A DNA stretch of 63,981 nucleotides, filler included, from a bacterium (lineage in GTDB: Bacteria; UBA9089; CG2-30-40-21; SBAY01): the NCBI GenBank assembly GCA_040757115.1. It is 6 parts of 6 records of this genome, joined end to end, with 100 filler letters (N's around TTAATTAATTAA, not from the genome) between each part and the next. Parts side by side here need not be neighbours in the genome. Positions count along the whole stretch, not along the records: positions 1 to 25,630 come from JBFLYA010000034.1; positions 25,731 to 28,908 come from JBFLYA010000346.1; positions 29,009 to 32,111 come from JBFLYA010000347.1; positions 32,212 to 35,308 come from JBFLYA010000348.1; positions 35,409 to 60,836 come from JBFLYA010000035.1; 1 more part is not named here. One strand, 5' to 3'. The stretch's first letter is position 1; every line of letters starts with the position of its first letter. Positions 114 to 49,018 of the stretch are shown here, piece after piece. Under the pieces are notes generated by a model. That model worked only from the letters and a program-made list of their open reading frames with translations, was not told where the DNA came from and made no database searches. The position numbers were made by a program, and so were the translations under genes.

Positions 114-164
114 TTTTCAGGAGAAACACCCATGAACCGTGGGTTCACAAATGAGGATGAAAAT
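114..164 (+). repeat. 51-bp hairpin-containing junction site (copy 1 of 6), consensus TTTTCAGGAGAAA-N4-CATGARCC-N2-3-GGYTCACAAA-N5-ATGAAAAT
   Basis: Same motif at 13378-13428(-), 13544-13594(-), 28728-28777(-), 32477-32527(+) and 48873-48922(+). Confidence 0.85.
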
Positions 165-302
165 AGTAGGTAGGAGATAGAAGGTGGGAGATAGGGAGAT
201 AAGCGTGAGGAGTGGTGTTTTCTTTACTTTCTACTCTCTACTTTCTACTCTCTACTTCCTATGAAATTTGCGGATTATTTTTAACAGGAAGAAAAAATTT
301 TT

Positions 303-659
303 ATGCTGACTTTAGCCGATAAAATTCTAATTGGGACTATTTTAATCGCCGCTGGTCTAAGTACCTGGTGGGTATTTGAATCCAGTATAGGTGAAATAGT
401 AGAAATTCAAACTCCTACGGAAGTAAAAAGGGTGAGTCTTTCTAAACAGCAAACTATATTCGCTCATGGAGCGTTAGGCACAACCACAATCGAAATTAAA
501 GAAAAGAAAGTCCGAGTAATAAATTCCCCCTGTCTACAAAAACTATGTGTCAAGATGGGTTGGAAGGATAAAAATGGACAGATAATTGCCTGTATCCCTA
601 ATAAAATTGTCGTGAAGATAATTAGTACAACTCGAAAACAAAAAGTAGATGCGATGTAG
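303..659 (+). CDS. NusG domain II-like (DUF1312) membrane-anchored protein
   Basis: N-terminal TM helix; SPCxxKxCVxxGW...IACIPNKIVV motif. Confidence 0.8.
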   Translation: MLTLADKILIGTILIAAGLSTWWVFESSIGEIVEIQTPTEVKRVSLSKQQTIFAHGALGTTTIEIKEKKVRVINSPCLQKLCVKMGWKDKNGQIIACIPNKIVVKIISTTRKQKVDAM

Positions 660-753
660 TAGAGCTGTAAAAAAAACACCAGATATGAATAAACCAGATA
701 CGAAGTTCACGAAGAAGTATTCATCCTCTGTTAAGGCAATGTTAAATTTATTG

Positions 754-925
754 GTAACTATTCAGCCACCAAGGCACCAAGACACAAAGAATATAAAAAA
801 TAAACATAGTAGAAGAATCTATTGCCAAAGAAAAAGATTTATCTGCCATTAAGACATGAAGGTTAAAACCTTGTTTTTAATTTGATTTTCTTAGTGCCTT
901 AGTGTCTTTGTGAGTGAACAGTTAC
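754..925. mobile_element. Non-autonomous element with GTAA ends (IS66-like MITE)
   Basis: TIR GTAACTATTCA/TGAACAGTTAC; 8-bp direct repeat ATTTATTG at 746-753 and 926-933. Confidence 0.85.
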
Positions 926-952
926 ATTTATTGTTAGGCAAAAGGATAGAAA

Positions 953-1171
953 ATGACAAGGAAGATTAGAGATCTCATAAGAGATTTACAAAGAGCAGGT
1001 TTTGTTGACAGAGGAGGCAAAGGAGATCATCGTAACTTTGCTCATCCAAATGTCACGAAGCCGATTACTATTTCAGGGAAAGAAGGCGATGACGCAAAGC
1101 ACTATCAAGAAAAAGCTGTCCGCCTTGCCATAGAGGAGGCTAAGAAATGGATGAGGAATATAGGTATGTAA
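953..1171 (+). CDS. hicA: HicA-family mRNA interferase toxin
   Basis: 72 aa; GF..rggKGDHrnF.HP motif. Confidence 0.85.
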   Translation: MTRKIRDLIRDLQRAGFVDRGGKGDHRNFAHPNVTKPITISGKEGDDAKHYQEKAVRLAIEEAKKWMRNIGM

Positions 1172-1386
1172 AGATTGTGGAATGGTCTGATGAGGACGGC
1201 TGCTTCATAGGCAGTTGTCCAGAGCTTTTCTACGGAGGGTGCCATGGAGATAATGAATACAGGGTTTTCGATGAGTTATGCCAGATTGTAGAAGAAACGA
1301 TAAGAATTTATCGGCAGGATGGTAAACCGCTACCTTCTCCACTTTCTGGTAGAGAGTTGGTGAATACACTCCAGAAGGTTGCCTAA
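1147..1386 (+). CDS. hicB: HicB-family antitoxin
   Basis: Y...VEWSDEDGCFIG.CPEL..GCHG...GKPLP motif; overlaps hicA. Confidence 0.85.
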   Translation: MDEEYRYVKIVEWSDEDGCFIGSCPELFYGGCHGDNEYRVFDELCQIVEETIRIYRQDGKPLPSPLSGRELVNTLQKVA

Positions 1387-1514
1387 CCAGGCGTTGCAGA
1401 CGGACGGCGGGGGACTGTGCTGTGATTGAAAGTTTTGTAGTATCTCAAGGGGTAATCGTGCTTATAAAGTTTAGTGGTAATCCTCCCCGCCACCGCTGAA
1501 CTCTGTCGTTAGTA
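1381..1514 (+). other. attC recombination site (134 bp)
   Basis: R'' GCCTAAC (contains the hicB stop), 5-nt spacer, L'' GTTGCAG with one extra base relative to L' GCTGAAC (1495-1501), 6-nt spacer, R' GTTAGTA (1508-1514); inner arms GGCGGGGGA/TCCCCGCC. Confidence 0.85.
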
Positions 1515-1720
1515 TTTAGCCAGAGATTGGCACGGATAGATAGAATGGGTTTAAAAGGATGAAAAGATACTAAACAAGAAAAGCGATTTGCTTTTTAAAG
1601 GTTGAATTTAGATGATATGTCTTAAAAATCAGTGTTTCATCCGTGTGTATCTGTGGCTGAATAATTACTATTATCTTTGTATCCTCGTGCCTTCGTGGCT
1701 AATTTTCAAAGGAAGAGAAA

Positions 1721-3517
1721 ATGGAACTTTCGCATATCCGTAATTTTAGTATTATTGCCCATATTGACCATGGAAAATCTACCCTGGCAGATAGATTATT
1801 GGAATATACCAATACGATTGATAAGCGTCAGATGCGAGACCAGGTGTTAGACAATATGGACCTGGAACGAGAACGCGGAATTACGATTAAGGCTCATCCG
1901 GTCAGAATGGAATATACCGCCTGGGATGGAAAAACCTACACTTTGAATCTTATTGATACACCAGGACATGTTGATTTTACTTATGAAGTATCTCGAAGTC
2001 TGGCCGCAACGGAAGGAGTATTACTTTTAATCGATGCCTCTCAAGGCGTAGAAGCTCAAACATTAGCCCATACATTATTAACCAGAAGTCTAAATAAGGC
2101 GATTATTCCGGTCATTACAAAAGTAGATTTGCCAAATATTGATGTTCCTTTAGTAAAAAAACAACTTGCGGAGATTTTAAAACTAAATCCCGATAAAGCC
2201 ATTTTAGCCAGTGGCAAGGAAGGTATTGGTATTGATGAAATATTAGAATCTATTGTTGATGAGATTCCACCACCTACGGGCGATGCGAATAAATCCTTAC
2301 AGGCATTGATTTTTGATTCATGGTTTGATGTCTATCGTGGTGTCGTCGTCTATATTCGGGTATTTCAAGGACAAATAAAACCTGGAATGGAGATTAAATT
2401 AATGTCTAATGATAAGACATATCTCGTGAGTGAAGTTGGCTCATTAAAATTAGACCTGATTCCAACAGATGTCTTGAAAGCCGGGGAGGTAGGATATGTC
2501 ATTGCCGGGATAAAAAATCTTGCTGATGTCAAAATCGGGGATACCATCACCACGGTATATTTTGCGGCAAAAGAGCCTTTACCCGGATACCGTGAATTAA
2601 AACCTATGGTTTTCTGCAGTATTTATCCTGGGGTTAATTCGAGTTTCCCTGAATTACAAAATGCAGTGGAGAAATTAAGATTAAATGATGCCTCCTGGAT
2701 ATATGAGCCAGAAACCTCAACGGCATTAGGATTTGGATATAGATGTGGGTTTTTAGGATTATTACATATGGAGATAATTTCTGAACGGCTTTATCGAGAA
2801 TACGAATTAGATTTAATCTCAACCGCTCCATCAGTTCCATATCGGATTACGAAAAAAAATGATGATGTCGTAATGATTGATACCCCGATTCATTTCCCAA
2901 ATATCGCAGAAATAGCTAAGGCTGAAGAACCTTATATTAAAGCCACAGTGTTAGTTCCTAATGAATATGTTGGGGGGGTATTAAAACTTCTCCAGTTAAA
3001 ACGAGGCATCCAGAAATCATTAAATTATCTCGAAGGAAATCGAGTAATGATTATTTATGAATTGCCACTCTCGGATGTTTTGTTTGACTTTTATGATAAA
3101 TTAAAATCTGTAAGTAGAGGATATGCCTCTTTAGATTATGAATATATGGATTATCGGCAAGTCCGGTTAGTCAAGGTCGATATTTTATTAGCCAATGAAA
3201 TTGTTGATGCGTTATCTTTTTTTGTGCCACAGGAAAAGGCATATCAACGAGGTAAGGACCTGGTGCTTAAATTAAAAGAGGTTATTCCCAGACATCAGTT
3301 TGCCGTGGCGATTCAGGCGGCTATTGGTGGCAAAATCATTGCTCGTGAGACTATTCCCCATCTCGGAAAACATGTCACGGGCAAATGCTACGGCGGTGAT
3401 ATTACCCGCAAAAGAAAACTATGGGAAAAACAAAAAGAAGGGAAAAAGAAAATGAAGTCATTTGGCAGGGTAAATCTGCCTAAAGAGGCATTCCATGCCA
3501 TCCTTAAGATTGAATAG
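1721..3517 (+). CDS. lepA: Elongation factor 4 (LepA)
   Basis: IRNFSIIAHIDHGKSTLADR, LIDTPGHVDF and C-terminal KCYGGDITRKRKL. Confidence 0.98.
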   Translation: MELSHIRNFSIIAHIDHGKSTLADRLLEYTNTIDKRQMRDQVLDNMDLERERGITIKAHPVRMEYTAWDGKTYTLNLIDTPGHVDFTYEVSRSLAATEGVLLLIDASQGVEAQTLAHTLLTRSLNKAIIPVITKVDLPNIDVPLVKKQLAEILKLNPDKAILASGKEGIGIDEILESIVDEIPPPTGDANKSLQALIFDSWFDVYRGVVVYIRVFQGQIKPGMEIKLMSNDKTYLVSEVGSLKLDLIPTDVLKAGEVGYVIAGIKNLADVKIGDTITTVYFAAKEPLPGYRELKPMVFCSIYPGVNSSFPELQNAVEKLRLNDASWIYEPETSTALGFGYRCGFLGLLHMEIISERLYREYELDLISTAPSVPYRITKKNDDVVMIDTPIHFPNIAEIAKAEEPYIKATVLVPNEYVGGVLKLLQLKRGIQKSLNYLEGNRVMIIYELPLSDVLFDFYDKLKSVSRGYASLDYEYMDYRQVRLVKVDILLANEIVDALSFFVPQEKAYQRGKDLVLKLKEVIPRHQFAVAIQAAIGGKIIARETIPHLGKHVTGKCYGGDITRKRKLWEKQKEGKKKMKSFGRVNLPKEAFHAILKIE

Positions 3518-3596
3518 TGTCGTGTTAAGGGGGGTATCATTAGGTTTCGTAACCTGCAAATGCAATAGCCTTATAACCTCTTAGCTAAAATCAGCG

Positions 3597-4988
3597 TTAC
3601 TTTACAGAAGAAGCACCACCTTCTCCCACTGCCTCTAAATAGCAAATATAGACGCCGATTGGTAGAATATCTCCGTCTTCATCTTGACCATTCCAGGTAA
3701 TACGATGGTCTTCCTTTGCTATTTTATATTCTTGTTCGATTAATCTTTTAACTAATCTTCCTCGAATATCATAGATTCTGATGGAAACATAGCTGGATTT
3801 TGAGAGTGAGTAAATAAGGCTAAAATTCTTTCCTTCTTCTGGACATAAGGTTTTATTTATTATCGTTACTATCCTAATTTCAGGAGGTTTTTCCGCAGAT
3901 GAAATTATCTCATTGGGCAAACCTGAAGTCGGTATAGAAACATACCAATCATTTTTAGAGTTGGTATCTGAAAGGGCATTTCTTGCTATTGACTGCCCGG
4001 CAGAGACCTTTGTGCTATCTATTGCCTCTCCTTGCCATTTCAAAGAGTTAATCAGCTCATTTCTATCTTTATCTTCATCTGCGGGTGGGGTATCATTTGC
4101 CCAACAAACTCCATCTATTATCTCATCGAGGAGATTAAAAAGAACCATCTGGTCAGTAGTTGAGGTAATGGATTCCTTATCTGTAAAAAGGTTTATCCGA
4201 CCATTAATTCCAAAGGTATCATCTTGCCCGGCGAGCCCATAATGTAACAATAAAAACTCACCTGTTTTAATCGTGCAACTCCCAATTATCTTATCTTCAT
4301 CACCATCTAAATCGTTAAAATAAAACCCTTTTATTTCGGCACCATTACCTTTATTCCCATCATCTACACAATAAACTTCAACCCAATCATTGCTCGTAGA
4401 AAACATTATCTCATTGATAAGTAATTTAACCCCTTGAATACCAGGAACATCTAAATAAACACTATTTTGTTTTCCAGGAGTCCCATAAGGGGTTTTCGAG
4501 GAATCCCAATAGAAGTCAGTATTTGAGCCCGATGGATAAATCTTTTCTAATGTCCGACCACTATTAACGGTGCCTGCACCCCAATCATTATCATAAGTTA
4601 ATATATTGACCGGAGTTAAATTATCCTTTAAAGTTAAGGTATCCGTGTTATCATCTAACGAGAAATTCCCTAATTCAACTATATTTATTTGGTCCGGGTA
4701 ACCATATTTATTAAATGTATCTTTATCTTCTATTAGCACTAAATAGTCATAGGATTTAATAGTTGTGGCTGCAGGAATGATTTTATCCTTTGAGCCATCA
4801 TTAAATATCCATTTAGAAATATCAATCTCCTCTTGTGTAGGATTATAAAGTTCTACCCATTCACCTTTAAAGTCTCCGACAAAAGAGGGGGCATCAAACA
4901 TTACTTCATTAATGATGACCGTATCTTGTCCCCACACTATCTCTATTTTTAAAAATACAAGGAGAATAATTATTACCTTTCTCCACAT
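3597..4988 (-). CDS. Secreted protein with two lamin-tail domains and a C-terminal FlgD-Ig-like domain
   Basis: Signal peptide; two INEVMF/INEIMF...EWVEL/DWVEV motifs; IRIYDIRGRLVK...WNGQDEDG..LPIGVY. Confidence 0.8.
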   Translation of the reverse strand: MWRKVIIILLVFLKIEIVWGQDTVIINEVMFDAPSFVGDFKGEWVELYNPTQEEIDISKWIFNDGSKDKIIPAATTIKSYDYLVLIEDKDTFNKYGYPDQINIVELGNFSLDDNTDTLTLKDNLTPVNILTYDNDWGAGTVNSGRTLEKIYPSGSNTDFYWDSSKTPYGTPGKQNSVYLDVPGIQGVKLLINEIMFSTSNDWVEVYCVDDGNKGNGAEIKGFYFNDLDGDEDKIIGSCTIKTGEFLLLHYGLAGQDDTFGINGRINLFTDKESITSTTDQMVLFNLLDEIIDGVCWANDTPPADEDKDRNELINSLKWQGEAIDSTKVSAGQSIARNALSDTNSKNDWYVSIPTSGLPNEIISSAEKPPEIRIVTIINKTLCPEEGKNFSLIYSLSKSSYVSIRIYDIRGRLVKRLIEQEYKIAKEDHRITWNGQDEDGDILPIGVYICYLEAVGEGGASSVK

Positions 4989-4998
4989 AACCTCTCTC

Positions 4999-5064
4999 TA
5001 TACACTCTAAAAATCGTAGATAGTCCTCATCCGTAAGAAAGATTGTTCTTCTTTCAATACCTAC
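4999..5064 (-). pseudogene. Short remnant resembling the N-terminus of a Y1/REP-associated tyrosine transposase
   Basis: Translates VGIERRTIFLTDEDYLRFLECI, similar to the RG.....IF..D.DY..FL motif; rest of gene absent. Confidence 0.45.
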
Positions 5065-5143
5065 GGTTACCAATAAAAAAGTCGGGGAAGAGCTGAGATT
5101 AGTATACAAAATGTTGAAACAAATGTCAATGAGATTTTACGCA

Positions 5144-5179
5144 ATTAACCCCGTTAGAATTTTGTCTAACAGGGTTAAT
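5144..5179. terminator. Hairpin downstream of glnA (terminator or REP-like palindrome)
   Basis: ATTAACCCCGTTAGA / TCTAACAGGGTTAAT inverted repeat. Confidence 0.5.
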
Positions 5180-5228
5180 CTACGGTAAAGATTATCTATA
5201 TCTCAATGGTTATCGTAAAGGTATTCCT

Positions 5229-6554
5229 TTACAGAATCGAAAGATACTTATCTAACTCGTACTGAGTTACCTGAATCCGATAATCTTCCCATTCCTTCTT
5301 TTTCAAATTAATGAATCTTGGGAAGATATGGTCGCCAAGTGTCTTTTTGACTAATTCGCTCTTTTCAGCAATGGATACTGCCTCTCCCAGACTACCTGGT
5401 AATGATTCAATCCCCAATTCTTTCCTTTCGTCATCAGTTAAATGATAGAGATTTTTCTCCATTGGCTCTGAGAGTGTATATCCTTTTTCAATGCCATCTA
5501 AGCCTGCCTGAAGCATCACGGCGAAGGTAAGGTATGGATTGCAAGCAGGGTCAGGACACCTTAACTCTGCCCTGGTGGCTTGCTCCTTGCCTGGATGATA
5601 GACCGGGATTCTCATTAACGCTGAGCGGTTACGATTACTCCAGGCAATATAAACAGGTGCTTCATAACCCGGGACAAGCCGTTTATAAGAATTCACCCAC
5701 TGGGCAAAAATAGCGCTCATCTCTTTAGCATAGGTTAATTGTCCGGCAATAAACTGTTTGGCGACATTGCTTAAGTGATATTTATCGTTTGGGTCAAAGA
5801 AGGCGTTCTTATTTCCTTTAAAGAGGGATTGGTGGGTATGCATACCACTACCATTTATCCCAAAGACTGGCTTGGGCATAAATGTGGCATAGACTCCATA
5901 TTTCTGAGCTATTTCCTTGACCACTAAACGATAGGTCATAACATTGTCTGCCATCTTCAGTGCATCTGCATACCTCATATCAATCTCATGTTGGCTATGG
6001 CCTACTTCATGGTGACTATATTCAATATGAATACCCATTGCTTCTAAAGCCAGAATGGTTTCGCGCCGCAAATCACTTCCTGCATCAAGGGTAGTCAAAT
6101 CAAAATAGCCTCCTTCGTCAAGCACATCAGTAGCATCAGAGGAATTGAAGTAGAAATACTCAAGCTCTGGTCCAAGATAATAATGGTCAAAACCCATCTC
6201 TTCCATCCTCTTTAATGCCCTTTTCAAGACATATCTTGGGTCTCCTTCATATTTTTTACCTCCAGGCACCAAAATATCACAAAACATCCTGGCTACAGCA
6301 TTCTCTTTTGGTCTCCAGGGAAGTAATTGGAATGTCTCTGGGTTAGGCATAGCAATCATATCGCTTTCCTCAATATCTTGATAGCCGGTGATTGACGAGC
6401 CATCAAACCCCATTCCATGGTCTAAGGCATTCTCAATCTCCTTGTCGGTTATGGCAAAACTTTTTAACTGACCGAGAACATCTGTAAACCATAACCGAGT
6501 AAACTTTACATTGTTCTCCTTGACTAATTTGAGCACATCATCTTTGGTTAGCAT
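5229..6554 (-). CDS. glnA: Glutamine synthetase type I (copy 1)
   Basis: FDGSSI, GPELEY, HHEV, ATFMPKP..GINGSGMHTH, KRLVPGYEAP and ELRCPDPACNPYL; start moved to the ATG at 6554 behind GGAGG. Confidence 0.95.
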   Translation of the reverse strand: MLTKDDVLKLVKENNVKFTRLWFTDVLGQLKSFAITDKEIENALDHGMGFDGSSITGYQDIEESDMIAMPNPETFQLLPWRPKENAVARMFCDILVPGGKKYEGDPRYVLKRALKRMEEMGFDHYYLGPELEYFYFNSSDATDVLDEGGYFDLTTLDAGSDLRRETILALEAMGIHIEYSHHEVGHSQHEIDMRYADALKMADNVMTYRLVVKEIAQKYGVYATFMPKPVFGINGSGMHTHQSLFKGNKNAFFDPNDKYHLSNVAKQFIAGQLTYAKEMSAIFAQWVNSYKRLVPGYEAPVYIAWSNRNRSALMRIPVYHPGKEQATRAELRCPDPACNPYLTFAVMLQAGLDGIEKGYTLSEPMEKNLYHLTDDERKELGIESLPGSLGEAVSIAEKSELVKKTLGDHIFPRFINLKKKEWEDYRIQVTQYELDKYLSIL

Positions 6555-6673
6555 ATCTAACACCTCCATCTTTATTTTTTACCCTGTATAACGAGGGATA
6601 TATATTAAAGTAAAAAATCAGCCCTTTTGGTAACCTCTTTTCTCATCTTAATCCGTGTGACAAACTTTTAATA

Positions 6674-6741
6674 GTAAGCGGATTTAGCAGATTGAGCGGA
6701 TTTTTTTATTTTTTTCCGCTCAATCCGTTCAATCCGCTTAC
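6674..6741. repeat. GTAAGCGG...CCGCTTAC palindromic repeat (second copy at 63760-63847)
   Basis: GCGGATT units and their complements; shared flanks AATA and AATAAAAAATG. Confidence 0.75.
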
Positions 6742-6783
6742 AATAAAAAATGTAATCTGTTTAATCAGCTTACAAAAAAATTA

Positions 6784-6853
6784 TTGACAAATAATAAAAA
6801 TAGTGTTATAATTGTATCAAATATTGAAGCGATTAGTGAGATTAATCGCTTCA
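6784..6853 (+). promoter_or_regulatory. sigma70 promoter and operator-like palindrome of the Fic gene
   Basis: TTGACA(6784)-17 bp-TATAAT(6807); perfect 11-bp inverted repeat TGAAGCGATTA-N7-TAATCGCTTCA at 6825-6853. Confidence 0.7.
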
Positions 6854-6869
6854 TGGGGTGGCATAAAAC

Positions 6870-7985
6870 ATGAAATATATCTGGCAATGTTCGTTATGGC
6901 CGAAATTGACCTGGGATAGTGATGCTCTTGTGTTTTTATTGGGACAAGCAAGGTTTGCCCAGGGGGCTCTTCTTGGACGCATCAAAGGCCTTGGTTTTAA
7001 GTTGGGAGAAGAGGCTCAGGCGGATATCCTTACGGAAGAAACCATTAAAACTGCCGCCATTGAAGGGGAGCAATTAAATCCTCAAATGGTGCGTTCATCA
7101 GTTGCTAGACATTTAGGATTACGAATGGCAGGTTTGATTCCATCTACCCGACCTATAGACGGATTAGTTGAGGTTATTTTAGATGCGACACAAGGGTATG
7201 ATAAAAGTCTTTCTGCGGACAGGCTAAAAGGATGGCAAGCGGCATTATTTCCATCAGGCTACTCTGGTTTTCATAACATCCAGATTGGGCAATGGCGTAA
7301 AGAAGGGCTTATGCGCGTAGTATCCAGTCCGGTAGAACGAGAGAAAATTCATTTTGAAGCACCTCCAGGCGAAATGGTAGAGGCTGAAATGCAGAAGTTT
7401 CTCCACTGGTGGGAATCAAGTCTTAAAACCACAGATGGTATTTTACGTGCGGGCATTGCACATTTTTATTTTGTTACCATCCATCCGTTCGAGGATGGTA
7501 ATGGCCGTATTGCCCGCGCATTGACAGATATGGCGCTTGCTCAGGACGAAAAACTTAAGCTCCGTTATTACAGCCTTTCGTCTCAGATTATGGAAGAAAG
7601 GGATGGGTATTATGATATTCTCGAAAAATGTTCAAAGGCAGACAGTACTGATGTGACCAAATGGCTTGTGTGGTTCTTAGGATGTTTCCAGCGAGCCATT
7701 AAAAGGTCCAATAAGATTATCGGCAATGTATTAACAAAGGCAGAGTTTTGGCATCAGCACGCTCAAACTGAACTTAACGAACGCCAAAAAAAGGTTATAA
7801 ACCGTATCCTGGAAGTTGGACAGGAAAACTTTACCGGTGGACTAACCACGCGTAAATATGTGAGTATGGCAAAGGTTAGCCGTGCAACAGCATTTCGTGA
7901 AATTGCAGATATGCTTGAGAAAAAAATATTGCAACCGCTGCCAGGGAAAGGACGCAGTGTTCACTACGATTTGGTGTGGCCATAG
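6870..7985 (+). CDS. Fic-family protein (DUF4172-type N-terminus, C-terminal HTH)
   Basis: HPFEDGNGRIAR Fic motif; YIWQ...WP N-terminus. Confidence 0.92.
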   Translation: MKYIWQCSLWPKLTWDSDALVFLLGQARFAQGALLGRIKGLGFKLGEEAQADILTEETIKTAAIEGEQLNPQMVRSSVARHLGLRMAGLIPSTRPIDGLVEVILDATQGYDKSLSADRLKGWQAALFPSGYSGFHNIQIGQWRKEGLMRVVSSPVEREKIHFEAPPGEMVEAEMQKFLHWWESSLKTTDGILRAGIAHFYFVTIHPFEDGNGRIARALTDMALAQDEKLKLRYYSLSSQIMEERDGYYDILEKCSKADSTDVTKWLVWFLGCFQRAIKRSNKIIGNVLTKAEFWHQHAQTELNERQKKVINRILEVGQENFTGGLTTRKYVSMAKVSRATAFREIADMLEKKILQPLPGKGRSVHYDLVWP

Positions 7986-8029
7986 GAATAAACATTGCAG
8001 TAAAAATGTAATAAAGGGATTATTAATAG

Positions 8030-8424
8030 GTAACTATTCAGCCACAGATGGACACGGCTGAAACACTGAAAATTCGTGAATCGTGTCCGGTATCCGTGTC
8101 CGTAGTCAGGCTGAAGGGTTCTTCTGAAAATCGGGACTCGGGAAGGCTGGTAGCCGCACGACCCATGCTCTGCATGGGTGCCCCGAGCCTGATTTCACCT
8201 GTGCCAGTGGAAGAGATTTCCACCCCCTTAATCCCCCGCCAGCGGGGGACAACCTGCCTCTGACCTCTATCTTCTGCCCTCTGCCTTCTGACCTCTGCCT
8301 TCTGCCCTCTGTCTTCTGCTATTTATCCGTGTTAATCTGTGGTTGAATAATTACTGGAATAGTTACCATATTTTTTCTTCGTGGTCTTCGTGCCCTTCGT
8401 GGTTTACCTTAACTGCACAGGTCG
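8030..8424. mobile_element. Composite of nested non-autonomous element fragments
   Basis: GTAACTATTCAGCCAC left end, CCCCCGCCAGCGGGG palindrome, heptamer run (TCTGMCY)n, TGAATAATTAC and CACAGGTCG right ends. Confidence 0.65.
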
Positions 8425-8443
8425 AAATTTTCCTTTTGATTTT

Positions 8444-8704
8444 TTATGGATTTTTCAATACTTTATTATGAACTCCAATCTTTCTTAAAATTATAGTATC
8501 ATTTTCAATTTGAAATGTCATTCTATATTTAACAGTAACATATGCCTCCCATTTATCTCTGGTGCCCTTAATCTTATGAATCTGCAAAGAAGGATGTTTA
8601 AGATTAGTTGCCAAAAAAACAATTTGTTTATCTGCCACCTTCTTTATCTCTTTAGGCAAAGCCTTATAATCTTCCTTAAAAGGTTCTGGAATTCTCAATC
8701 TCAT
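8444..8704 (-). CDS. RelE/ParE-superfamily toxin
   Basis: 86 aa; F..DYK.LP...HPSLQIHKIKG...WE..V...YRMTF......LRKIG.H. Confidence 0.75.
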   Translation of the reverse strand: MRLRIPEPFKEDYKALPKEIKKVADKQIVFLATNLKHPSLQIHKIKGTRDKWEAYVTVKYRMTFQIENDTIILRKIGVHNKVLKNP

Positions 8705-8943
8705 TTATTTAACCACTCTAAAGCCTGATTTGGGGCATCAAAATCACAGTATCTGCCTTCATGAAGTGCCATATCAACCAGTTTTTCTCCCTTTTGCCAT
8801 TCTTCTGTCCAAAAATATGCTTGTTCGGGCTCAGTTGTTTTAAACCTTAAAAAATGGATGAAATCTACCACCTCACAAACAGCATAATCGGGCAATCTTT
8901 CTAATTCTTTCAATATCTCTTTTTGGGCAACACTTTCTACCAT
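8701..8943 (-). CDS. Putative antitoxin (DUF2281-like N-terminus)
   Basis: LP....EVVDFIHFL plus QAYFWTEEWQ motif; overlaps the toxin gene by 4 bp. Confidence 0.65.
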   Translation of the reverse strand: MVESVAQKEILKELERLPDYAVCEVVDFIHFLRFKTTEPEQAYFWTEEWQKGEKLVDMALHEGRYCDFDAPNQALEWLNK

Positions 8944-9132
8944 ATTTAACCCCCCTTTACTGTTAAATGAGCTCTCTCAACATCTCCAGAGCTCGGATTT
9001 GACTGAAGTTTAAACCACCCGTTCTTGTATCTTCCCCCCAATTTTTACCTTCACAACATCACCGATTTCTGATTTATTCCAGGGCACCTTCCTTTTACCT
9101 ACAAGGGAATAATGCACCCTTTTATATCAACC

Positions 9133-9366
9133 TTACCTATCCATTTGTTGAGAAAGCTCTCCAACTGATTTATCTGCACGCCTCAGTCTGCTTACCTCAA
9201 GCCCCGTAACTTCTACATCCTTATCCAACAAGATGGTCATAGAGGCTCCGGTGTCAGCCAAAAAACTGATTTCTTCTGTAACCCCAATCGTTTCTGAATA
9301 TATCACTGCATCAACAAAAGGGGCTATTGGCTTAAACGAGTAATCAAAGTATCCTTCTATCCTCAT
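9133..9366 (-). pseudogene. Retropepsin-like aspartyl protease, apparently truncated at the C-terminus
   Basis: FLADTGASMTIL motif; only 77 aa and no C-terminal LGRD motif. Confidence 0.6.
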
Positions 9367-9623
9367 AGAATCAACTCAATTCCCTTCCTGCTTACATATT
9401 TAATTAAAGGTTTCTCACGCTTTAGTTTGGCGGGTATTCTATCTTTAAGCTCCTCTAAATTGGAAGCATCAGCAACTATCTTTTTATTCCAGATAGCTAC
9501 GAATTCCTCAGGATACCCCTTTACTAATTCCTGATAATTTTTTAGAAACCATTCACGGTCTCTTCTACCTTTCTCAAACATCTTTCTATAAAGCCTATTC
9601 TGAGATACTGACATTATTTTCAC
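9363..9623 (-). CDS. DUF5678-like small protein
   Basis: WF..NY.EL...YP.EFVAI...KIVA motif; upstream partner of the aspartyl protease. Confidence 0.65.
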   Translation of the reverse strand: MKIMSVSQNRLYRKMFEKGRRDREWFLKNYQELVKGYPEEFVAIWNKKIVADASNLEELKDRIPAKLKREKPLIKYVSRKGIELIL

Positions 9624-9841
9624 CTCTCAAATCATACAGACTCTTTGACTTCGTGACATTTCACACCAGCAGAACATCTCTCCTTTGATGCAAAATTGAT
9701 AGGTGACTTATCCAACTTCCTCCTTTTCTGAAACTGATAGAAATTTGCTTTTTGAGTATTTCGGATGTTACCTTCACTTTTGCCCATTATGAAAATATTT
9801 TACCAAAATCTTTCCCTATTGTCAACAAAAATTCTCGACCT

Positions 9842-11727: not shown

Positions 11728-12450
11728 GTGTTTTTTTTCAATCTCTTTAGTCAGGATAATTGCCTCCGCAATTTCCCGCATCGACTTACGCATATTCATT
11801 GATTGATGTTGAATTCTTCGATACGCCTCTTCTTCTGAAAGCCGCCGTTCTTTCATCAGAATACCTTTGGCTTTTTCTACCAGTTTTCTGGTCTCCAATT
11901 CTTCCTGAATAATTTTAGTTTTAACCATCAAATTGGCATTTTCAATAGCTACTGCAGATTGATTTGCTACAGTGGTCAGGGTATCAATTTCACTTTTGGT
12001 GAATTTATGGGGGGTGGAGGTATAACTGGTCAAAGCTCCAATTACCTTTCCTTTAACACACAAAGGAACGCAAACTAAAGAAACCAACCCTTCTTTTTTA
12101 GCCATCTCTTTATATTTATAATCTTTTTCTTTAGTTACATCAAGCACGGTTATAGGCCTATTTTCTTTAACTACCTTGCCAGCAATTCCTTCTCCTATTT
12201 TTAGATTTGGTTTTTGATTATATGCCTCATAAAACTCCTTACTAATAGAATGAGTTGCTCGGATAACTAATTCTTGCTTTTCTTCATCCAAAAGCATTAA
12301 AGAGCATATTTTGGAAGACATTACTTCTGCGGTCACAGTGGTGATAAGACGGAGGATATCCTCTAAATAAAGGTTAGAGACAATCGCCTCACTTACCTTA
12401 GAGACAGCCTTTAATCGTTTAGCATAAGATAGTTTTGATGGACTTTCCAT
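11722..12450 (-). CDS. GAF-ANTAR one-component RNA-binding regulator
   Basis: GAF (GEGIAGKVV...SLVCVPL...VIGAL) followed by ANTAR (LETRKLVEKAKGILM...SEEEAY..IQ..SM..RKSMREIAEAI). Confidence 0.93.
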   Translation of the reverse strand: MESPSKLSYAKRLKAVSKVSEAIVSNLYLEDILRLITTVTAEVMSSKICSLMLLDEEKQELVIRATHSISKEFYEAYNQKPNLKIGEGIAGKVVKENRPITVLDVTKEKDYKYKEMAKKEGLVSLVCVPLCVKGKVIGALTSYTSTPHKFTKSEIDTLTTVANQSAVAIENANLMVKTKIIQEELETRKLVEKAKGILMKERRLSEEEAYRRIQHQSMNMRKSMREIAEAIILTKEIEKKHC

Positions 12451-12502
12451 TTAAGATTTACTTCCTTTCACCAGTAGGAACGCTCTCTCTCGTCAAACGA
12501 AA

Positions 12503-13237: not shown

Positions 13238-13247
13238 TTTTTCCCCC

Positions 13248-13594
13248 TTTCCCCTGAAAATAGCGAATTAGTGAATTAGAGATTAGCGAATTAGTATAGT
13301 ATCCACAGACTCGTATCCTCTGGTGTAGAACAGATATTCCCCCTTAATAAAGGGGGTTAGGGGGTTGTTCTTCCATTATTTTCATCCCCCTTTGTGAGCC
13401 GCAGACTCATGACCCTTTCTCCTGAAAATAATCCGCAGATTTCGTAGATTACACAGATTTTTATTTTTTTATCTCCCCGCTGGCGGGGGATTAAGGGGTT
13501 AGGGGATTCTTTTATTCCCGAATCCCGAGCCCCGAGTCCCTTAATTTTCATTATCCTTTGTGAACCAACGGTTCATGCCTATTTCCCTTGAAAA
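13248..13594 (-). repeat. Array: site - module C - site - module B - half-site
   Basis: Sites at 13544-13594 and 13378-13428, half-site at 13248-13260; module B (13261-13377) nearly identical to 28611-28727. Confidence 0.85.
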
Positions 13595-13613
13595 GCAATG
13601 GTAATTTTCGCTT

Positions 13614-14344: not shown

Positions 14345-14364
14345 TTTACATAACCCCCTAACCC

Positions 14365-15687: not shown

Positions 15688-15785
15688 TGATACACACTCC
15701 TTTATAAAAGATATGGGAATCTGTTTATCTTCCCGAAATCGCCTTTATTTGAATAAAAACAAGGCGGCGAAGAAACTATGTTCTA

Positions 15786-35288: not shown

Positions 35289-35408
35289 GAAAGGGGATAA
35301 GGAGATAANNNNNNNNNNNNNNNNNNNNNNNNNNNNNNNNNNNNNNNNNNNNTTAATTAATTAANNNNNNNNNNNNNNNNNNNNNNNNNNNNNNNNNNNN
35401 NNNNNNNN

Positions 35409-38400: not shown

Positions 38401-39993
38401 CGGATGAACAAAATTGCCTGATTTGCGGTCTATATCCATCTGGACCTCTGGCGGTGTCCTATCAACAATGACATCAACCATTTTCTCCATTGATTGATTG
38501 CCAACCGTATCTACAGCGCGGAATCCAATTTGATGGTTACCTTCCTGTGAAATCGAGAATGCGCCCGTGTATCTCTTCCACTCCTCATTATCTATTTTGC
38601 ATTGCACCTCCGCCACACCTGCGGCATTATCACTGGCGGCTAATGAAAATATGGTCTGCGGATGAACAAAACTGCCTGATTTGTGGTCTATATCAATCTG
38701 GACTTCTGGCGGTATGTTGTCAACCACGACGATAAACTTATCTATCTCTCCAGAGTTACCAAAGGCATCAACGCCTTTATATTTAATCGTATGAGTTCCT
38801 GCTTTGTTAAATGATATTGGCTGATGATAGGTATAAAAATCGTCGTTGTCTATAGCTGCTATGATGCGGACAATGCTGGTATCGGCGTCTAATGGTTTCA
38901 GGGTATATTGGCAAGATATGTGGGCATAGAGAATGCTCTCCTTTTTAAATAGGGGGCTATCTGGCACTATTTCCAGCTGTAGTTTTCTAACAATCCTTAA
39001 TATTCTGGCATTACTGAATTTGCCTTCAAGCCCGGATTTATCAATACTCCTCACACGCCAGTAGTATTTTCCTACGGGTAAGGTTGTAGAAACAACACTT
39101 GTTGATTCTGTGCCTTGGACTCTATAGACCACATTATTAAATGCCTCGTCTTTCGCTATCTCAAGGTAATATTTTGCCGCCTCAGGAACAGACTTCCATG
39201 AAAAGGTTAGCGTCAGGATACCTGTAATAAAATCATCTACCGGTTTAATTAATTCTGGAGATTTTGGAAGTGGTTTTGGAGGTGATGGTAGTTCTCCTTT
39301 GACGGATTGAATTCCAAAGCCGGCAGGGACATTGACAGCTTTGCCAGTAGATGATGCCAGAACCTCTCCTTGAAATACAGATATGCTGGAGAGGCCATCG
39401 GGTGTGTATCCTATCTCGAATTCAGTTCCTCTAACCCCGCAAAAGACACCTGGGGTCTCAATCTCAAAATTAGAGCCAGTCGTCTTTGTTCCTTTAAACG
39501 ACATTTTACCGTGAAGGAGTTTTACCTTTGTATTGACTGCTTTAACCTTTTCCGCATAAACGCTGTGTTTAAGTACCAATGATGTCTCTGGTTTTAGTTG
39601 CAGGATACTTTTATCCTCAAATTCAATTTGAGCCGTTGAATCTGGACCCACAACAACCTCATCATGGGGATAGACATTATCTCCTCTACGGAGATTAACA
39701 TACTTATTTGTCCCAATCCTTTTAATTGTAACATCACCAAATACTTCCGTAACTTTCACCTGTGGCACTTCGGGTATTTTAATCATATCTCCGGGGAGAA
39801 TAAAATGAGGATTTTTGAGTTTGTTATAATCGGCAATAGCCATCCATAACCACGGAGTCTGCAAATACTTTTCTGAGATATCCCACAATGTATCCCCGTC
39901 TTTAGTCTTGTGAATCAAGAGTTCTTGTGCAGAGACTAATGAGACTAAACTAACCATACAGGTTGTAAAAAGAAACATTCTAAAGATTTTCAT
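35409..39993 (-). CDS. Secreted LysM-FecR-FN3-like protein with at least 13 Ig-like 86-aa repeats (3' end lost in the gap)
   Basis: Signal peptide; GDTLWDIS..YL..PWLW..I...N..KNPHFILPG; ETP...GVRGTEF; D.TPP repeats at 258-bp spacing. Confidence 0.88.
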
Positions 39994-40013
39994 GATTATT
40001 ACCTCCTTTTTTG

Positions 40014-40391
40014 GTAACCGTTCACCACAAGATGCCACAGAGACGCAGAGAAAAAATTAAAATCTATTCACCAGAAACAGAAATTTCCGTAAGCGTTCAG
40101 GTGGTGTAAGAAAAGGAGATATGGAAATAAAGGAGATAAGGGGATATATTTAGGAGTTTTTGGTGAAAGGATTAGGGTTAGGAGGCTGGTTTGGTTTAGG
40201 GGTTATAAAAGTTAGTCTTTTTGCATAACCATTTTGCCCAATTATCCAGGGAATTTATAATCTCCACATCTCCCCAATCCCCTTATCTCCCTTCTTACAC
40301 TTCTAATATATAACCTGAACGGTTACAAAAAAAGATATTTTCCTCTCTGTTTCTCTGCGTCTCTGCGGTAAAGGATTACCTGAACGGTTAC
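40014..40391. mobile_element. Nested GTAA-ended elements in the 5' UTR of the LysM gene
   Basis: Outer GTAACCGTTCA/TGAACGGTTAC, inner GTAAGCGTTCAGG/CCTGAACGGTTAC. Confidence 0.7.
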
Positions 40392-43354: not shown

Positions 43355-43382
43355 AGTGAGAAAAGGAGTAGCGAAATTAGAG

Positions 43383-43925
43383 ATGAAAGAATTAGTCAAA
43401 CAACTACTTATATCTTTTGGAGAAAATCCTGATAGAGAAGGATTAAAAAAAACACCAGCCAGGGTAGAGGAATCGTTGAAATTTCTGACATCAGGTTATG
43501 AGGTAGAAGTTGCAGATGTGTTTAAAGATGCTACCTTTGTCGAGAATTATGACGAGATGGTTTTGGTTAAGGATATTGATTTCTATAGTCTATGTGAACA
43601 TCATCTCCTTCCTTTTTACGGCAAATGCCATATCGCTTATATTCCGGATAAAAAGATAGTTGGATTAAGTAAATTAGTGAGATTGGTTGAAATATTCAGC
43701 CGCAGATTGCAGGTTCAAGAAAGGCTTACCACGCAAATTGCTCAGGCAATAAAAGAACATTTGACCCCATTGGGCGTAGGTGTAGTCATCGAGGCATATC
43801 ATTTGTGTATGATGATGCGTGGTGTCCAGAAACAAAACTCACAAATAACTACCAGCTCAATGCTGGGGATTTTCCGCCAGAAACAATCTACACGAATGGA
43901 ATTCTTATCGTTGTTAAAGAAATAG
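43383..43925 (+). CDS. folE: GTP cyclohydrolase I
   Basis: [36 protein letters not shown] and HLCMMMRG. Confidence 0.97.
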
Positions 43926-43952
43926 AAGACAGAGCTCATAAGGAAAGAAATA

Positions 43953-46377: not shown

Positions 46378-46384
46378 ACAAATT

Positions 46385-46753
46385 TTACTCCCGTCCATAA
46401 ATATCTTCATATCTCTCAATATCATTTTCATCTGCATATCCGAAGGATATCTCTAATACTCTTCCTTTTTTGCCAAGCGATGAAAGGCGGTGTTTCATAT
46501 TTCTTAAGATGACAATCTCATCTCCTGGTTTTGGCTTTATAATTTTATCCTCTAACTCCACCTGTAGTCCATCGTCAATAATGACCCATAGTTCATCTCT
46601 TTTTTTATGAGATTGTCTACTCAACATTTGATTTGGTTTGACGGTGAGAATTTTAACCGTGCATTCCTCATTATGGGCATATTGTTTAAAATTGCCCCAT
46701 GGTCTAATATCCTGTATAATTTTTTTTCTAATATCATCTTCTCTTAAACTCAT
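46385..46753 (-). CDS. Cupin, mannose-6-phosphate isomerase type II C-terminal-like
   Basis: RPWG, VKIL.VKP...LS.QSH..R.ELW, HRL and DE.DIER.ED.YGR. Confidence 0.88.
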   Translation of the reverse strand: MSLREDDIRKKIIQDIRPWGNFKQYAHNEECTVKILTVKPNQMLSRQSHKKRDELWVIIDDGLQVELEDKIIKPKPGDEIVILRNMKHRLSSLGKKGRVLEISFGYADENDIERYEDIYGRE

Positions 46754-46853
46754 TTTGTATCCTCACCCTCTCTTTTGAAAAAAACATCGTTGTCATATTA
46801 TACCACAATTTCAATCTATGTCAATTGAAATTTTATACATACACTAAAATTTG

Positions 46854-47043
46854 GTAACCGTTCAGGCTATATATCAAAAGTGTAAGAAAGGGGATAAGGA
46901 GATAAGAGTGATATGGAGATAAGATAATAGAATATAGATTGAAATTTATAGAAATAGGTAGAAATTGATTGTGGAAAACAACAAATTTCCATAAATTTCT
47001 ATTAATTTCAATTTTTGTCGTGCTCTTCGTGGTGAATAGTTAC
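46854..47043. mobile_element. GTAA-ended element (left end identical to 35257-35308)
   Basis: GTAACCGTTCAGGCTATATATCAAAAGTG ... TGAATAGTTAC. Confidence 0.7.
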
Positions 47044-47412
47044 CCAGGGGATTATTGTTTGCCTTTACCAGACAACTGATTGAGGTAGATAATATCCTGA
47101 AAAACCTGTCTCAACCTTACCAAATCCGCCTGGATTCTTCTTAGAACTGCTACCTTATTTTGTTCCAGCAACCCCTCTTTTTCCCTCTTTAATCCATATC
47201 ATATTTTTATCATATTGACAATCTTTTTTTTGACTCCAATATTTTGATATATCAGGAGACACAGGAGAGAACTGTCCTTTTTAATGTCCCCTACCATCTT
47301 GTCCCCGAACTGTATCTTAAAAATAAAAATCATGAAAATTTACTCTTCAGAACTGAAAAATTGATTTATTACTTGACAATTATCTCCTATTTATGATAAT
47401 CTTAAAAGAACA

Positions 47413-48765
47413 ATGAATCCAGTTCGTAGTAGATTTTCTAAAAAACTGAATAAAGAGGTTGAATCTTTTACCTCTTCTATTGATATTGATAAAAAATTCT
47501 ATAAGTATGATATTACTGGCAGTCAAGCTCATGCAAAAATGCTCGGTAAATGCGGTATTATCCCTCAACAAGAAGCAGAAGAGATAATACAGAGATTAGA
47601 AGAGATTAAAACCGAACTTGAAGAAGGAAATTTTCAATTCAGCCCGGAATTAGAAGATATTCATATCCATATTGAAAAAGCCTTAATAGATAAATTGGGT
47701 AAAACGGGTGAAAAACTTCATACTGCCAGGTCTCGAAATGACCAGGTAGCCATAGATACAAGGCTTTATCTCCGAGAAGAAATAAAAGAGATAATCGAAC
47801 TAATAAGAACCTTACAAAAATCTATCATCAATATAGCCCAGGAAAATTTAGAGACGATTATGCCCGGTTATACCCATTTACAGCATGCCGAACCAGTTCT
47901 TTTCTCGCATCATTTAATGGCTTACTTCTGGATGCTTCAACGGGATGTAGATAGATTACAAGATGGCTATAAGCGGGTAAATGTTATGCCACTCGGGAGT
48001 TGTGCTCTGGCTGGAACATCCTTACCTATAGACCGCCAATGTGTTGCTGAATTACTTGAGTTTCCCCAAATAAGTGAAAATAGCATTGATACGGTTAGCG
48101 ACCGAGATTATATCATTGAATTTTCAGGTAATATTTGTTTGGTGATGATGCATCTATCAAGGTTAAGTGAGGAGTTAATTCTGTGGTCAACACAAGAGTT
48201 TGGATTTATTGAGTTAGATGAGGCATTTTGCACCGGCAGTAGCATTATGCCACAAAAGAAAAATCCAGATGTTTGTGAATTAATTAGAGGAAAAACAGGT
48301 ATAATTTACGGACATCTTGTTTCATTACTCACGATGATGAAAGGATTACCACTATCTTATAATCGAGATATGCAGGAGGATAAATATCCATTACTTGATA
48401 CCGTAGAAATAGTTAAATTAGCATTATCCATCTTTGGTAAGATGCTCTTAACGATGAAGATAAAGAAAGAAAGGATGTTATCTATCCTGAGTGGTGATTT
48501 TTCAACCGCGACTGAAATGGCTAATTATTTAGTCAAAAAAGGTATTCCTTTCCGTCAGGCACATCAAATAGTAGGTAAGATATGCCAGATGGGGAAACCA
48601 TTAGAAGTTTTGACATTGGAAGAGTTACAGCATTTCTCACCCGTATTTTCAGAAGATGTGCTTAAAATATTAAAACCTCAGGAGTCTATAAAACAAAAAA
48701 TATCTTATGGGGGCACGGGAGTAATTCAAGTAAAGGAACAAATTGAATTAGCTAAAAAAGCATGA
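47413..48765 (+). CDS. argH: Argininosuccinate lyase
   Basis: LHTARSRNDQ, MPGYTHLQ, TGSSIMPQKKNPD and YNRDMQEDK. Confidence 0.97.
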   Translation: MNPVRSRFSKKLNKEVESFTSSIDIDKKFYKYDITGSQAHAKMLGKCGIIPQQEAEEIIQRLEEIKTELEEGNFQFSPELEDIHIHIEKALIDKLGKTGEKLHTARSRNDQVAIDTRLYLREEIKEIIELIRTLQKSIINIAQENLETIMPGYTHLQHAEPVLFSHHLMAYFWMLQRDVDRLQDGYKRVNVMPLGSCALAGTSLPIDRQCVAELLEFPQISENSIDTVSDRDYIIEFSGNICLVMMHLSRLSEELILWSTQEFGFIELDEAFCTGSSIMPQKKNPDVCELIRGKTGIIYGHLVSLLTMMKGLPLSYNRDMQEDKYPLLDTVEIVKLALSIFGKMLLTMKIKKERMLSILSGDFSTATEMANYLVKKGIPFRQAHQIVGKICQMGKPLEVLTLEELQHFSPVFSEDVLKILKPQESIKQKISYGGTGVIQVKEQIELAKKA

Positions 48766-48779
48766 ATTAAGAGAAGGTA

Positions 48780-49018
48780 GGGAAACGGGGAAAGGAAGAA
48801 AGGGAGAAAAGGCTGAAGGCTGAAGGAAACAGCGTTCAAAACTTCAGCCTATACCCTTCAGCCTTCAGCCTATTTTCAGGAGAATGCTCATGAACCGCTG
48901 GTTCACAAATGAGGATGAAAATAGTGGTAGGAGATAGAAGATGGGATGTAAGGAGATAGGCGTGAGGAGTGATGTTTTCTTTACTCTCTACTTTCTACTT
49001 CCTTATTTTCAGGAGAAA
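48780..49018 (+). repeat. Array: module E - site - module A - half-site
   Basis: Site at 48873-48922, half-site at 49006-49018 adjoining the ferredoxin RBS. Confidence 0.8.

Follow-up and report, generated by a model that had tools for sequence, protein, structure and literature searches.

A 63,981-base stretch of draft DNA (here called the window) from a bacterium of the GTDB lineage UBA9089 contains six copies of a hairpin-bearing site of about 50 nucleotides (nt), and comparison of these copies with each other and with those in related genomes indicates that the site is the conserved 5′ head of a short non-coding repeat unit. Near-identical whole units at unlinked places, uneven copy numbers among genomes, and look-alikes in unrelated contexts suggest that the units are non-autonomous mobile DNA, probably (at a rough probability of 0.55) repeats that are recognized through a single-stranded hairpin.

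The window is a pseudomolecule in which at least six draft contigs are strung together, several of them ending inside repeats. Its GC content is 36.9%, and LepA, ribosomal protein S15, and other housekeeping genes identify the host as bacterial. The six site loci are spread over five contigs and, since these are separate draft contigs, the spacing of the loci within the window carries no meaning and their neighborhood in the genome is not implied. The closest genome used for comparison (designated G001; 4.7 Mb in 770 contigs) has coding DNA 95–100% identical to that of the window. A covariance model of the head was built from 97 copies and run on the window with filters off. For window positions 1–20000, one DNA run (X1, as contigs) was also considered, the contigs of which end at repeats and provided no usable junctions.

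The repeat unit and its copies in the window

Each unit opens with a short motif, G(R)GAAAC in the window lineage and RTGAAAC in other lineages, which is followed by 3–4 free bases, the segment CAT-hairpin-CACAAA, 5 free bases, and the 8-mer ATGAAAAT (K). The 3′ portion consists of a body (or module) of 40–130 nt, which is lineage-specific and often forms a long imperfect hairpin, and then ATTTTCAK (K′, the reverse complement of K). In the consensus of the 97 copies, CA precedes the stem and CACAAA follows it. The outer arms of the site are inverted 8-mers, ATTTTCAG (K′) and ATGAAAAT (K), in line with the inverted arms noted in a first-pass annotation of the window, and the covariance model recovers exactly the six copies that this annotation had placed. 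Five of them score 58–67 bits, one is degenerate, and the seventh-ranked window match of the head model reaches 18.9 bits (E 0.15). The strict left half of the motif, allowing up to three mismatches, has four matches in the window as opposed to none in 100 shuffles.

In 30 loci of G001, the head variant, including the free bases on either side (N3 and N5), goes with the downstream module and not with the upstream one; the site and the downstream module thus form a single unit. The annotation had described the site as a separator of modules. It does stand at every module junction, but it is not a neutral boundary, being a head that travels with the module behind it. The reported recurrence of modules was borne out, with 94% identity between 13246–13400 and 28596–28750, 94% between 153–262 and 28777–28886, and 92% between 28793–28870 and 48926–49003, as was the claim that module order differs between loci, which extends even to one orthologous locus (see below). 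Among five bodies folded, K/K′ closes three into a long hairpin (z −2.5, −3.6, and −5.6), and the predicted folds of bodies B and C are not closed through K/K′. The bodies in the window are rich in heptamer repeats. The copies are as follows, in the order of reading along each array.

1–112, + strand: upstream module of D type at the contig start, itself repeated, ending in ...CAACTTACAAAC before K′; positions 5–239 match contig C679 of G001 at 85%
113–164, + strand: site copy 1 (model match 107–169, 66.8 bits); K′ ATTTTCAG at 113–120, head at 121–156 with hairpin TGAACC-gtg-GGTTCA, K ATGAAAAT at 157–164
165–262, + strand: body A of unit 1, with a purine-rich arm and then a pyrimidine-rich heptamer arm; followed by unique DNA and the ATG (303) of a NusG_II-domain gene
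13544–13596, − strand: site copy 3 (model match 13539–13601, 60.3 bits); degenerate K′ gcTTTTCAAg, hairpin TGAACC-gtt-GGTTCA, K at 13544–13551
13422–13543, − strand: body C, ending in K′ at 13422–13429; minimum-energy fold not closed by K/K′
13378–13421, − strand: site copy 2 (model match 13373–13435, 58.3 bits); hairpin TGAGTC-tgc-GGCTCA with one U-G pair, K at 13378–13385
13254–13377, − strand: body B, ending in K′ at 13254–13261; followed by GGGGAAAGGGGGAAAAA and the ATG (13237) of an NAD synthase gene
28779–28908, − strand: unit preceding copy 4, cut by the contig end; AT-rich "leader" head without a hairpin at 28883–28908, K at 28875–28882, body A at 28779–28874
28728–28778, − strand: site copy 4 (model match 28723–28784, 62.2 bits); K′ at 28771–28778, hairpin TGAGCC-ag-GGCTCA with a 2-nt loop, K at 28728–28735
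28604–28727, − strand: body B′, ending in K′ at 28604–28611; part of the stretch 94% identical to 13246–13400
25371–25540, − strand: second "leader" copy; K at 25507–25514, a heptamer palindrome plus the 3′ half of body A, K′ at 25371–25378; followed by GAGGAATCA and ATG 25361
32417–32475, + strand: C-like body before copy 5, flanked by two K′ copies
32476–32527, + strand: degenerate site copy 5 (model match 32470–32532, 35.2 bits, E 5.9e-5); K′ at 32476–32483, head CATACCC-ttgca-GGTCACAAA, K at 32520–32527
32528–32580, + strand: body D, with K′ at 32567–32574; followed by GAGAAA and the ATG (32581) of an open reading frame (ORF) with a glycosyltransferase-2 domain
48872–48922, + strand: site copy 6 (model match 48865–48927, 59.4 bits); K′ at 48872–48879, hairpin TGAACC-gct-GGTTCA, K at 48915–48922
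48923–49035, + strand: body A at copy 6, fold closed by K/K′ (z −2.46), K′ at 49005–49012; followed by GAGAAAGGAGGAAATAAAGAA and the in-frame ATG 49036
25631–25730, 28909–29008, 32112–32211, 35309–35408, and 60837–60936: linkers N44-TTAATTAATTAA-N44 between contigs

The 4Fe-4S ferredoxin ORF after copy 6 is listed, with its Pfam match, as 48941–49210, and we read ATG 49036 as the candidate true start of this gene. The 34-bp "leader", identical at its two places in the window, is an AT-rich head variant preceding K, and G001 carries two copies of it. It had been proposed as the start of arrays; however, the copy at 28908 is truncated where its contig stops and repeat DNA continues upstream of 25540, which makes it a further module next to K and not an array leader. 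The "leader" (…ATATATATTATAC…; 25515–25560 and 28883–28908, both on the − strand) also resembles a −10 region directly before K and may be a promoter-carrying head variant.

Conservation of the hairpin as a structure

The covariation of the hairpin, first noted among the window copies, holds in a larger alignment of 58 distinct copies from the window and G001. In this alignment, which had been fitted to the covariance model, stem positions pair in 96.4% of cells, compared to 84.2% in shuffles, and both sides have changed in 39 cells, compared to 10.1 in shuffles (a value of 39 was reached in 0 of 500 shuffles), with compensatory changes at three of the six stem pairs. Stem variants include GAGCC/GGCTC, GAACC/GGTTC, GAGTC/GACTC, GCCCC/GGGGC, and GCCCAC/GTGGGC, the stem being 5–7 bp long and the loop of 2–4 nt varying freely. 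Because the stems change by compensation while the loop varies freely, the hairpin is judged to be selected as a structure. A 6-bp stem was the sole structure predicted by RNAalifold on the head copies, and inspection by eye for N3–N5 pairing or hammerhead-like cores yielded no consistent pattern. No Rfam 15 family matches the window at its gathering score; the five sub-threshold matches at 13200–13650 reach 18.9 bits at best, compared to a gathering score of 63.

Copy number and distribution among genomes

G001 contains 48 exact cores of the head, as opposed to none in a reversed control, and at least 140 covariance-model matches, a lower bound for which 150 of 2449 candidates were scored. 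Recurring whole units are 150–185 bp long; the unit with body B (window 13245–13432) has at least 30 copies in G001 at 90–99% identity, and that with body A (window 113–262) at least 40 copies at 80–98%. Draft contigs break at these repeats, and eight solo units or arrays with unique left flanks were found in G001. Across 30 relatives, 10 have model matches (at least 140, 42, 18, 2, 2, 2, 1, 1, 1, and 1) and 20 have none; exact cores number 53, 15, 11, 3, and 1 in five other genomes.

Outside the lineage, a core-only scan covered one genome per species, or 596 billion bases, and at least 120 stretches were among the matches listed. As about 140 chance matches are expected for the core alone in that many bases, the count by itself is weak evidence. 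However, K occurs within one mismatch, 3–7 nt downstream of the core, in 83 of the 120 listed stretches, most of which also have GAAAC upstream, and neither K nor GAAAC was part of the query. The presence of the head outside the lineage rests on these flanks, which are kept although they were not searched for. The 83 K-bearing stretches lie mostly in metagenome-assembled genomes (MAGs) labeled Nitrospirae/Nitrospirota, Brocadiaceae/Planctomycetota, and Deltaproteobacteria/Syntrophaceae, with a few in MAGs labeled Nitrospinota, Omnitrophota, and others; a cyanobacterial label is absent from the 120 stretches listed. One Nitrospirae MAG of 1.7 Mb, with 53 exact cores, is organized in the same way, with heads, K, palindromic bodies, and K′. 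Two core matches came from 2.9 million viral contigs, both without K and the flanks. Four solo units of 176–217 bp were found between unrelated genes in differently labeled MAGs, and three of the four are 88–92% alike, with flanks that do not match.

Orientation of the units and their position at gene starts

All six window copies are sense to the downstream gene. Where an ORF was called downstream of an exact-core copy in the window or G001, the copy is sense to it in 26 of 30 cases; in other genomes, the genes on both sides are sense 35 times and antisense 12 times. Arrays run head-to-tail, with all heads on one strand at each of 20 multi-head loci, and none of 33 sites in the window and G001 lies inside a called ORF. 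The neighbors are unrelated housekeeping genes.

After K′ in the window and G001 comes GGRGAA, with the start codon at offsets 8–21 (15 cases). Outside the window lineage, 12 of 15 long ORFs after K′ start at offset +1, where ATTTTCAG is joined directly to ATGAAA or GTGAAA, or ATTTTCAT to ATGAAA, and the N-termini of these ORFs are ordinary. Since the last K′ precedes a Shine-Dalgarno sequence or abuts the start codon, the unit is considered to carry or restore the translation-start context. The four solo units span the entire gap from the stop codon (plus 0–6 nt) to the next start codon.

Every unit begins with a motif that is also found after its own 3′ end (RTGAAA, or GGRGAAA in the window lineage). 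The motif reads ATGAAA on the left and GTGAAA on the right of all four solo units, and in G001 the GGRGAAA copies on the two sides resemble each other without being identical. Complementarity between the unit ends RTGAAA... and ...TTTCAK extends over only 5–6 nt, and the clear inverted pair K/K′ frames the body rather than the whole unit. The junctions of the solo units are compatible with an exchanged short core, a target-like right end, or microhomology alike.

Turnover at orthologous loci

At the NusG_II-domain locus, the window matches G001 at 100% identity over about 136 nt of body A and its flank. Their heads disagree at 12 of about 42 positions, a compensated stem being among the differences, and the units preceding them are not the same. 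The switch point lies inside body A, beside a 23-bp deletion between direct repeats. A breakpoint within a module body points to ordinary recombination between dispersed copies, suggesting that this replacement, the single one resolved, did not arise by exchange at the hairpin, which was the junction favored in the first-pass annotation.

Other repeat types differ between the two genomes as well. At two tight gene junctions (window 43357–43361 and 43925–43941, compared with G001 contig C152), palindromic heptamer modules (GGTAACT/AGTTACC type) of 113 bp and 131 bp occur in G001, as opposed to 3 and 15 bases in the window. Window 51843–52427 holds about 570 bp of composite repeat DNA, compared to 12 bp in G001 contig C98, and its beginning (about 51840–52079) has at least eight copies at 99% identity in G001. 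Two further stretches, 18731–19031 (about 300 bp) and 19032–19231 (about 200 bp), have 18 and 9 listed G001 copies at 86–99%, and the orthologous G001 contig has different content there. The presence or absence of other repeat types at tight gene junctions indicates that the intergenic repeats of this lineage are dynamic in general.

Probable mobility of the units and the search for copying machinery

If the units are non-autonomous mobile repeats, a factor acting in trans would copy them to new places and would recognize, on one strand, the hairpin and its conserved single-stranded flanks. Insertion would prefer GAAA-containing start signals (RTGAAA or GGAGAAA), that is, the motif that opens each unit. 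The modules would then be the bodies of separately placed units, and the shuffled look of the arrays would result from units having arrived singly and from recombination between dispersed copies.

Several results weigh against mobility. No recurrent protein was found among 318 ORFs within 1.5 kb of sites, where the largest related group has five members, all secretion ATPase-like. Apart from RuvX, no recombinase or transposase was found among the 50 of 63 listed window ORFs covered by the protein scan, in agreement with the annotation, which had seen none. An autonomous partner with the same ends is likewise missing from the 318 neighboring and 50 window ORFs, the whole genomes having been searched non-exhaustively. 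Y1_Tnp genes occur in 22 of 30 relatives, element-free genomes included, but none of nine Y1_Tnp loci in G001 has a site, and a genome with 53 exact copies (G063) has one weak match, whereas one with a single copy (G061) has 12; a Y1/RAYT link was rejected, as these genes neither carry the site nor track its abundance. A link to integron integrases was also rejected, as they occur in copy-free genomes, are rarely near sites, and do not group by copy number in a tree (see below). No empty-versus-filled pair for a hairpin unit was found between the window and G001, the contigs of which stop within arrays at three of five window loci compared for this purpose. Canonical terminal inverted repeats are not evident at the unit ends, and the flanking direct repeat is of inconsistent length (8 nt in two of the four solo units, 3–5 nt in the other two). 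Finally, the head is conserved far better than the bodies across lineages and lies sense to transcription, which a host RNA function would explain equally well.

Integron-type (TIGR02249) integrases are common in the phylum of G001, with matches at E ≤1e-30 in 13 of its 24 sampled genomes and in none of six outgroup genomes; in G001 itself they are present only as fragments at contig ends (C745, C611, and C220). An RRM-type RNA-binding protein of 104 amino acids is encoded at window 52629–52943 (+ strand) and is a possible candidate partner of structured leaders.

Alternative explanations

The alternative that fares best, although still unlikely, is a structured cis-acting RNA element of 5′ untranslated regions and operon junctions, in which the hairpin, together with the single-stranded flanks CACAAAGG and AUGAAAAU, would serve for binding or processing, and the K/K′ helix beside the ribosome-binding site or start codon would adjust translation or the stability of the mRNA; this function would maintain the repeats, however they spread. 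Such an element would suit the sense orientation and direct arrays, the abutment of K′ on start codons or Shine-Dalgarno sequences, the closure of three of five folded bodies into long hairpins, the conservation of the flanks across lineages alongside compensated stems, and the AT-rich, putative promoter ahead of K in two window units. It fits poorly with a copy number that ranges from 0 to at least 140 among relatives, with neighbors that are unrelated housekeeping genes, with the lack of an Rfam family, and with whole units at 95–99% identity, which indicate recent copying and not old conserved regulators. Moreover, at the pair left free by the search pattern, the sense strand shows more A-C mismatches (9 of 97) than G-U pairs (2 of 97), which is unexpected under selection on the sense RNA.

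A bolder version of mobility, which we regard as rather doubtful, is that the units are mobile "translation-start cassettes". An enzyme would read the folded hairpin of the head on a single DNA strand and carry out recombination between the palindromic junction ATTTTCAK-RTGAAA and start-codon or Shine-Dalgarno regions of arbitrary genes, thereby inserting, stacking, or exchanging ready-made 5′ leaders (hairpins, ribosome-binding site, and start codon), with horizontal spread among Nitrospirota, anammox Planctomycetota, Desulfobacterota, and the window lineage. If true, this would amount to a recombination system directed at the starts of genes, without a known relative.

More doubtful still is a revised form of the cassette system proposed in the first-pass annotation. 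Here, circular excised units with the junction K′-RTGAAAC would insert into similar junctions at gene starts, and a tyrosine- or serine-type recombinase bound to the folded hairpin would exchange a short shared core (TGAAA). That every unit opens with the motif following its own 3′ end, that arrays are head-to-tail, and that K′-RTGAAA(A/C) is a near-perfect 16-bp palindrome would all be in keeping with it, as would the left ATGAAA and right GTGAAA of the four solo units, a pattern to be expected of a left arm derived from the target and a right arm derived from the element; the left copy of one solo unit even has a variant base matching the right flank. Integron-type integrases are present in all five copy-rich genomes tested, although in G001 only as fragments. 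However, they are equally present at 0 or 1 copy, being above the curated cutoff in G007, G009, G014, and G017 (no sites) and in G005 and G008 (one site each). Only one of six integrase loci has a model match within reach, past the 3′ end of the gene, and the integrase tree (15 of 19 sequences, four short fragments having been dropped) does not split copy-rich from copy-poor genomes, with five label changes compared to a shuffled mean of 5.3. The integron-like reading of the first-pass annotation thus found no support when tested directly. In addition, a C follows the putative crossover in about 2 of 10 right junctions, misfitting a G/TT core, the resolved replacement breaks inside a body, and a circle junction would be indistinguishable from an array junction.

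It is quite improbable that the units are immobile, i.e., palindromic DNA made or reshuffled locally by replication slippage, template switching at K/K′, homologous recombination, or gene conversion. The homologous-type exchange in body A beside the 23-bp direct-repeat deletion, the varying junction microhomology of the solo units (3–8 nt), and the 113- and 131-bp heptamer-palindrome modules that G001 has, and the window lacks, at two tight junctions are what local processes would produce, but these processes leave unexplained the tens of near-identical whole units at unlinked loci, the 88–92% identical units in unrelated contexts of differently labeled MAGs, and the conservation of the head across lineages.

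A repeated mini-gene, in which AGGAGAAAC-N3-C-ATG would start a leader peptide (MNRWFTNEDEN...) from a good Shine-Dalgarno sequence 8 nt before the ATG at the hairpin foot in the window lineage, is effectively refuted, as loops of 2–4 nt and stems of 5–7 bp shift the frame so that none is kept across copies, other lineages have no Shine-Dalgarno sequence there, third codon positions are no less conserved than others, and ORFs of at least 60 amino acids extend from only 21 of 122 sites, in no constant frame and by read-through into neighboring genes.

Other features of the window

Two glutamine synthetase paralogs (5229–6569 and 14365–15687, both on the − strand) share a 270-nt stretch at 75% identity, and beside them lie a GAF-ANTAR regulator (11722–12450) and an ORF with a glutamate synthase domain (16799–18391). 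Coding repeats include an open-ended ORF at 35410–40038 (− strand), with at least 13 tandem repeats of 258 nt (86 amino acids) that are 70–80% identical, and 63-nt tandem repeats at 61479–62423 (− strand) within an ORF of 416 amino acids without a Pfam family. Also encoded are a MazF/PemK-like toxin domain ORF (15786–16142, − strand), a Fic/DUF4172 ORF (6870–7985, + strand), and a TMEM260-like O-mannosyltransferase with TPR repeats (20633–22594, + strand).

Significance and comparison with known repeat systems

Small repeats such as repetitive extragenic palindromes (REP), bacterial interspersed mosaic elements (BIMEs), small dispersed repeats (SDR), and miniature inverted-repeat transposable elements (MITEs) are common; to our knowledge, the copying enzyme and the effect on the host are known for few families. 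The element described here offers a clear handle, namely, a head of about 45 nt conserved across several phyla, a covarying stem, strict orientation, a precise position at start sites, and copy numbers from 0 to more than 140. These features of the head make a search for a partner protein testable by phylogenetic profiling, as they do the rewriting of translation-start regions. The units also fragment draft assemblies of these uncultivated lineages.

Like MITEs, the units are small, non-coding, and present in many near-identical copies. BIMEs of Escherichia coli are mosaics of palindromic units with other short motifs, and the units share with them a conserved palindromic unit combined with a few other motifs in varying order in intergenic DNA. 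The sequences, however, are unrelated, and here the hairpin and the motif following it are copied as one, in arrays that are strictly direct and oriented with the gene. SDR of heterocyst-forming cyanobacteria, as reportedly described by Elhai et al. in 2008, include tiny hairpin repeats nested in larger intergenic and heptamer tandem repeats, and we know of no transposase for them. Likened to SDR by description and not by sequence, the present element differs in that its head occurs in several non-cyanobacterial lineages.

Integron attC sites have inverted core sites (RYYYAAC ... GTTRRRY), and cassette arrays lie next to intI/attI. Variable imperfect palindromes with short conserved inverted ends, a folded single strand, and head-to-tail arrays of varying order are common to both. 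In contrast to the attC consensus, the ends here are ATGAAAAT and ATTTTCAK, and RTGAAAC in the head lacks a GTTRRRY partner; the units contain no ORF, and their arrays are scattered at many gene starts, with integrases not tracking them. Clustered regularly interspaced short palindromic repeats (CRISPR) were rejected because the stretches of 40–130 nt between sites are themselves repeats (at least 30 and at least 40 copies), although cas genes were not searched for.

Mycobacterial interspersed repetitive units (MIRUs) are tandem minisatellites with small overlapping ORFs. As with MIRUs, the units are operon-junction repeats in one orientation to transcription that touch flanking stop and start codons; unlike MIRUs, they keep no frame and are dispersed and mosaic. 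TAACTGA heptamer repeats lie close to start codons. They are intergenic direct repeats in Beggiatoaceae, cyanobacteria, and Bacteroidetes (PMC4679880). They resemble the present element as short intergenic repeats common to distant lineages, and the bodies in the window are also heptamer-rich; however, they are simple direct repeats and are not known to have a hairpin head or a K/K′ frame.

REP are marked by an unpaired tag, GTAG or CGTC, on one side of the palindrome (PMC3733652), and in REP doublets forming hairpins (REPINs) the inverted doublet is the replicative unit (PMC3116915). The units are similar to both in forming tens to hundreds of short palindromes outside genes that are predicted to fold as single-stranded DNA or mRNA, lack coding capacity, interrupt draft assemblies, and are regarded as non-autonomous mobile DNA. 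Yet neither strand of the 97-copy consensus shows GTAG or CGTC, inverted doublets are absent (20 of 20 arrays are direct), and the units stand before gene starts, whereas REP lie mainly behind coding regions; further, Y1/RAYT genes are neither flanked by the site nor tracking its abundance, and the head is accompanied by a variable body and an inverted 8-mer pair. Membership in REP/REPIN was rejected on the lack of the tag, of inverted doublets, and of a Y1 link. In the literature searched, which did not extend to supplements or to the cyanobacterial SDR sequences, no description of the element was found, nor, among the papers listed, any repeat term paired with these lineages. These comparisons suggest that the element, which is set apart from SDR by the general description of the latter, represents a previously undescribed family of small mosaic extragenic repeats.

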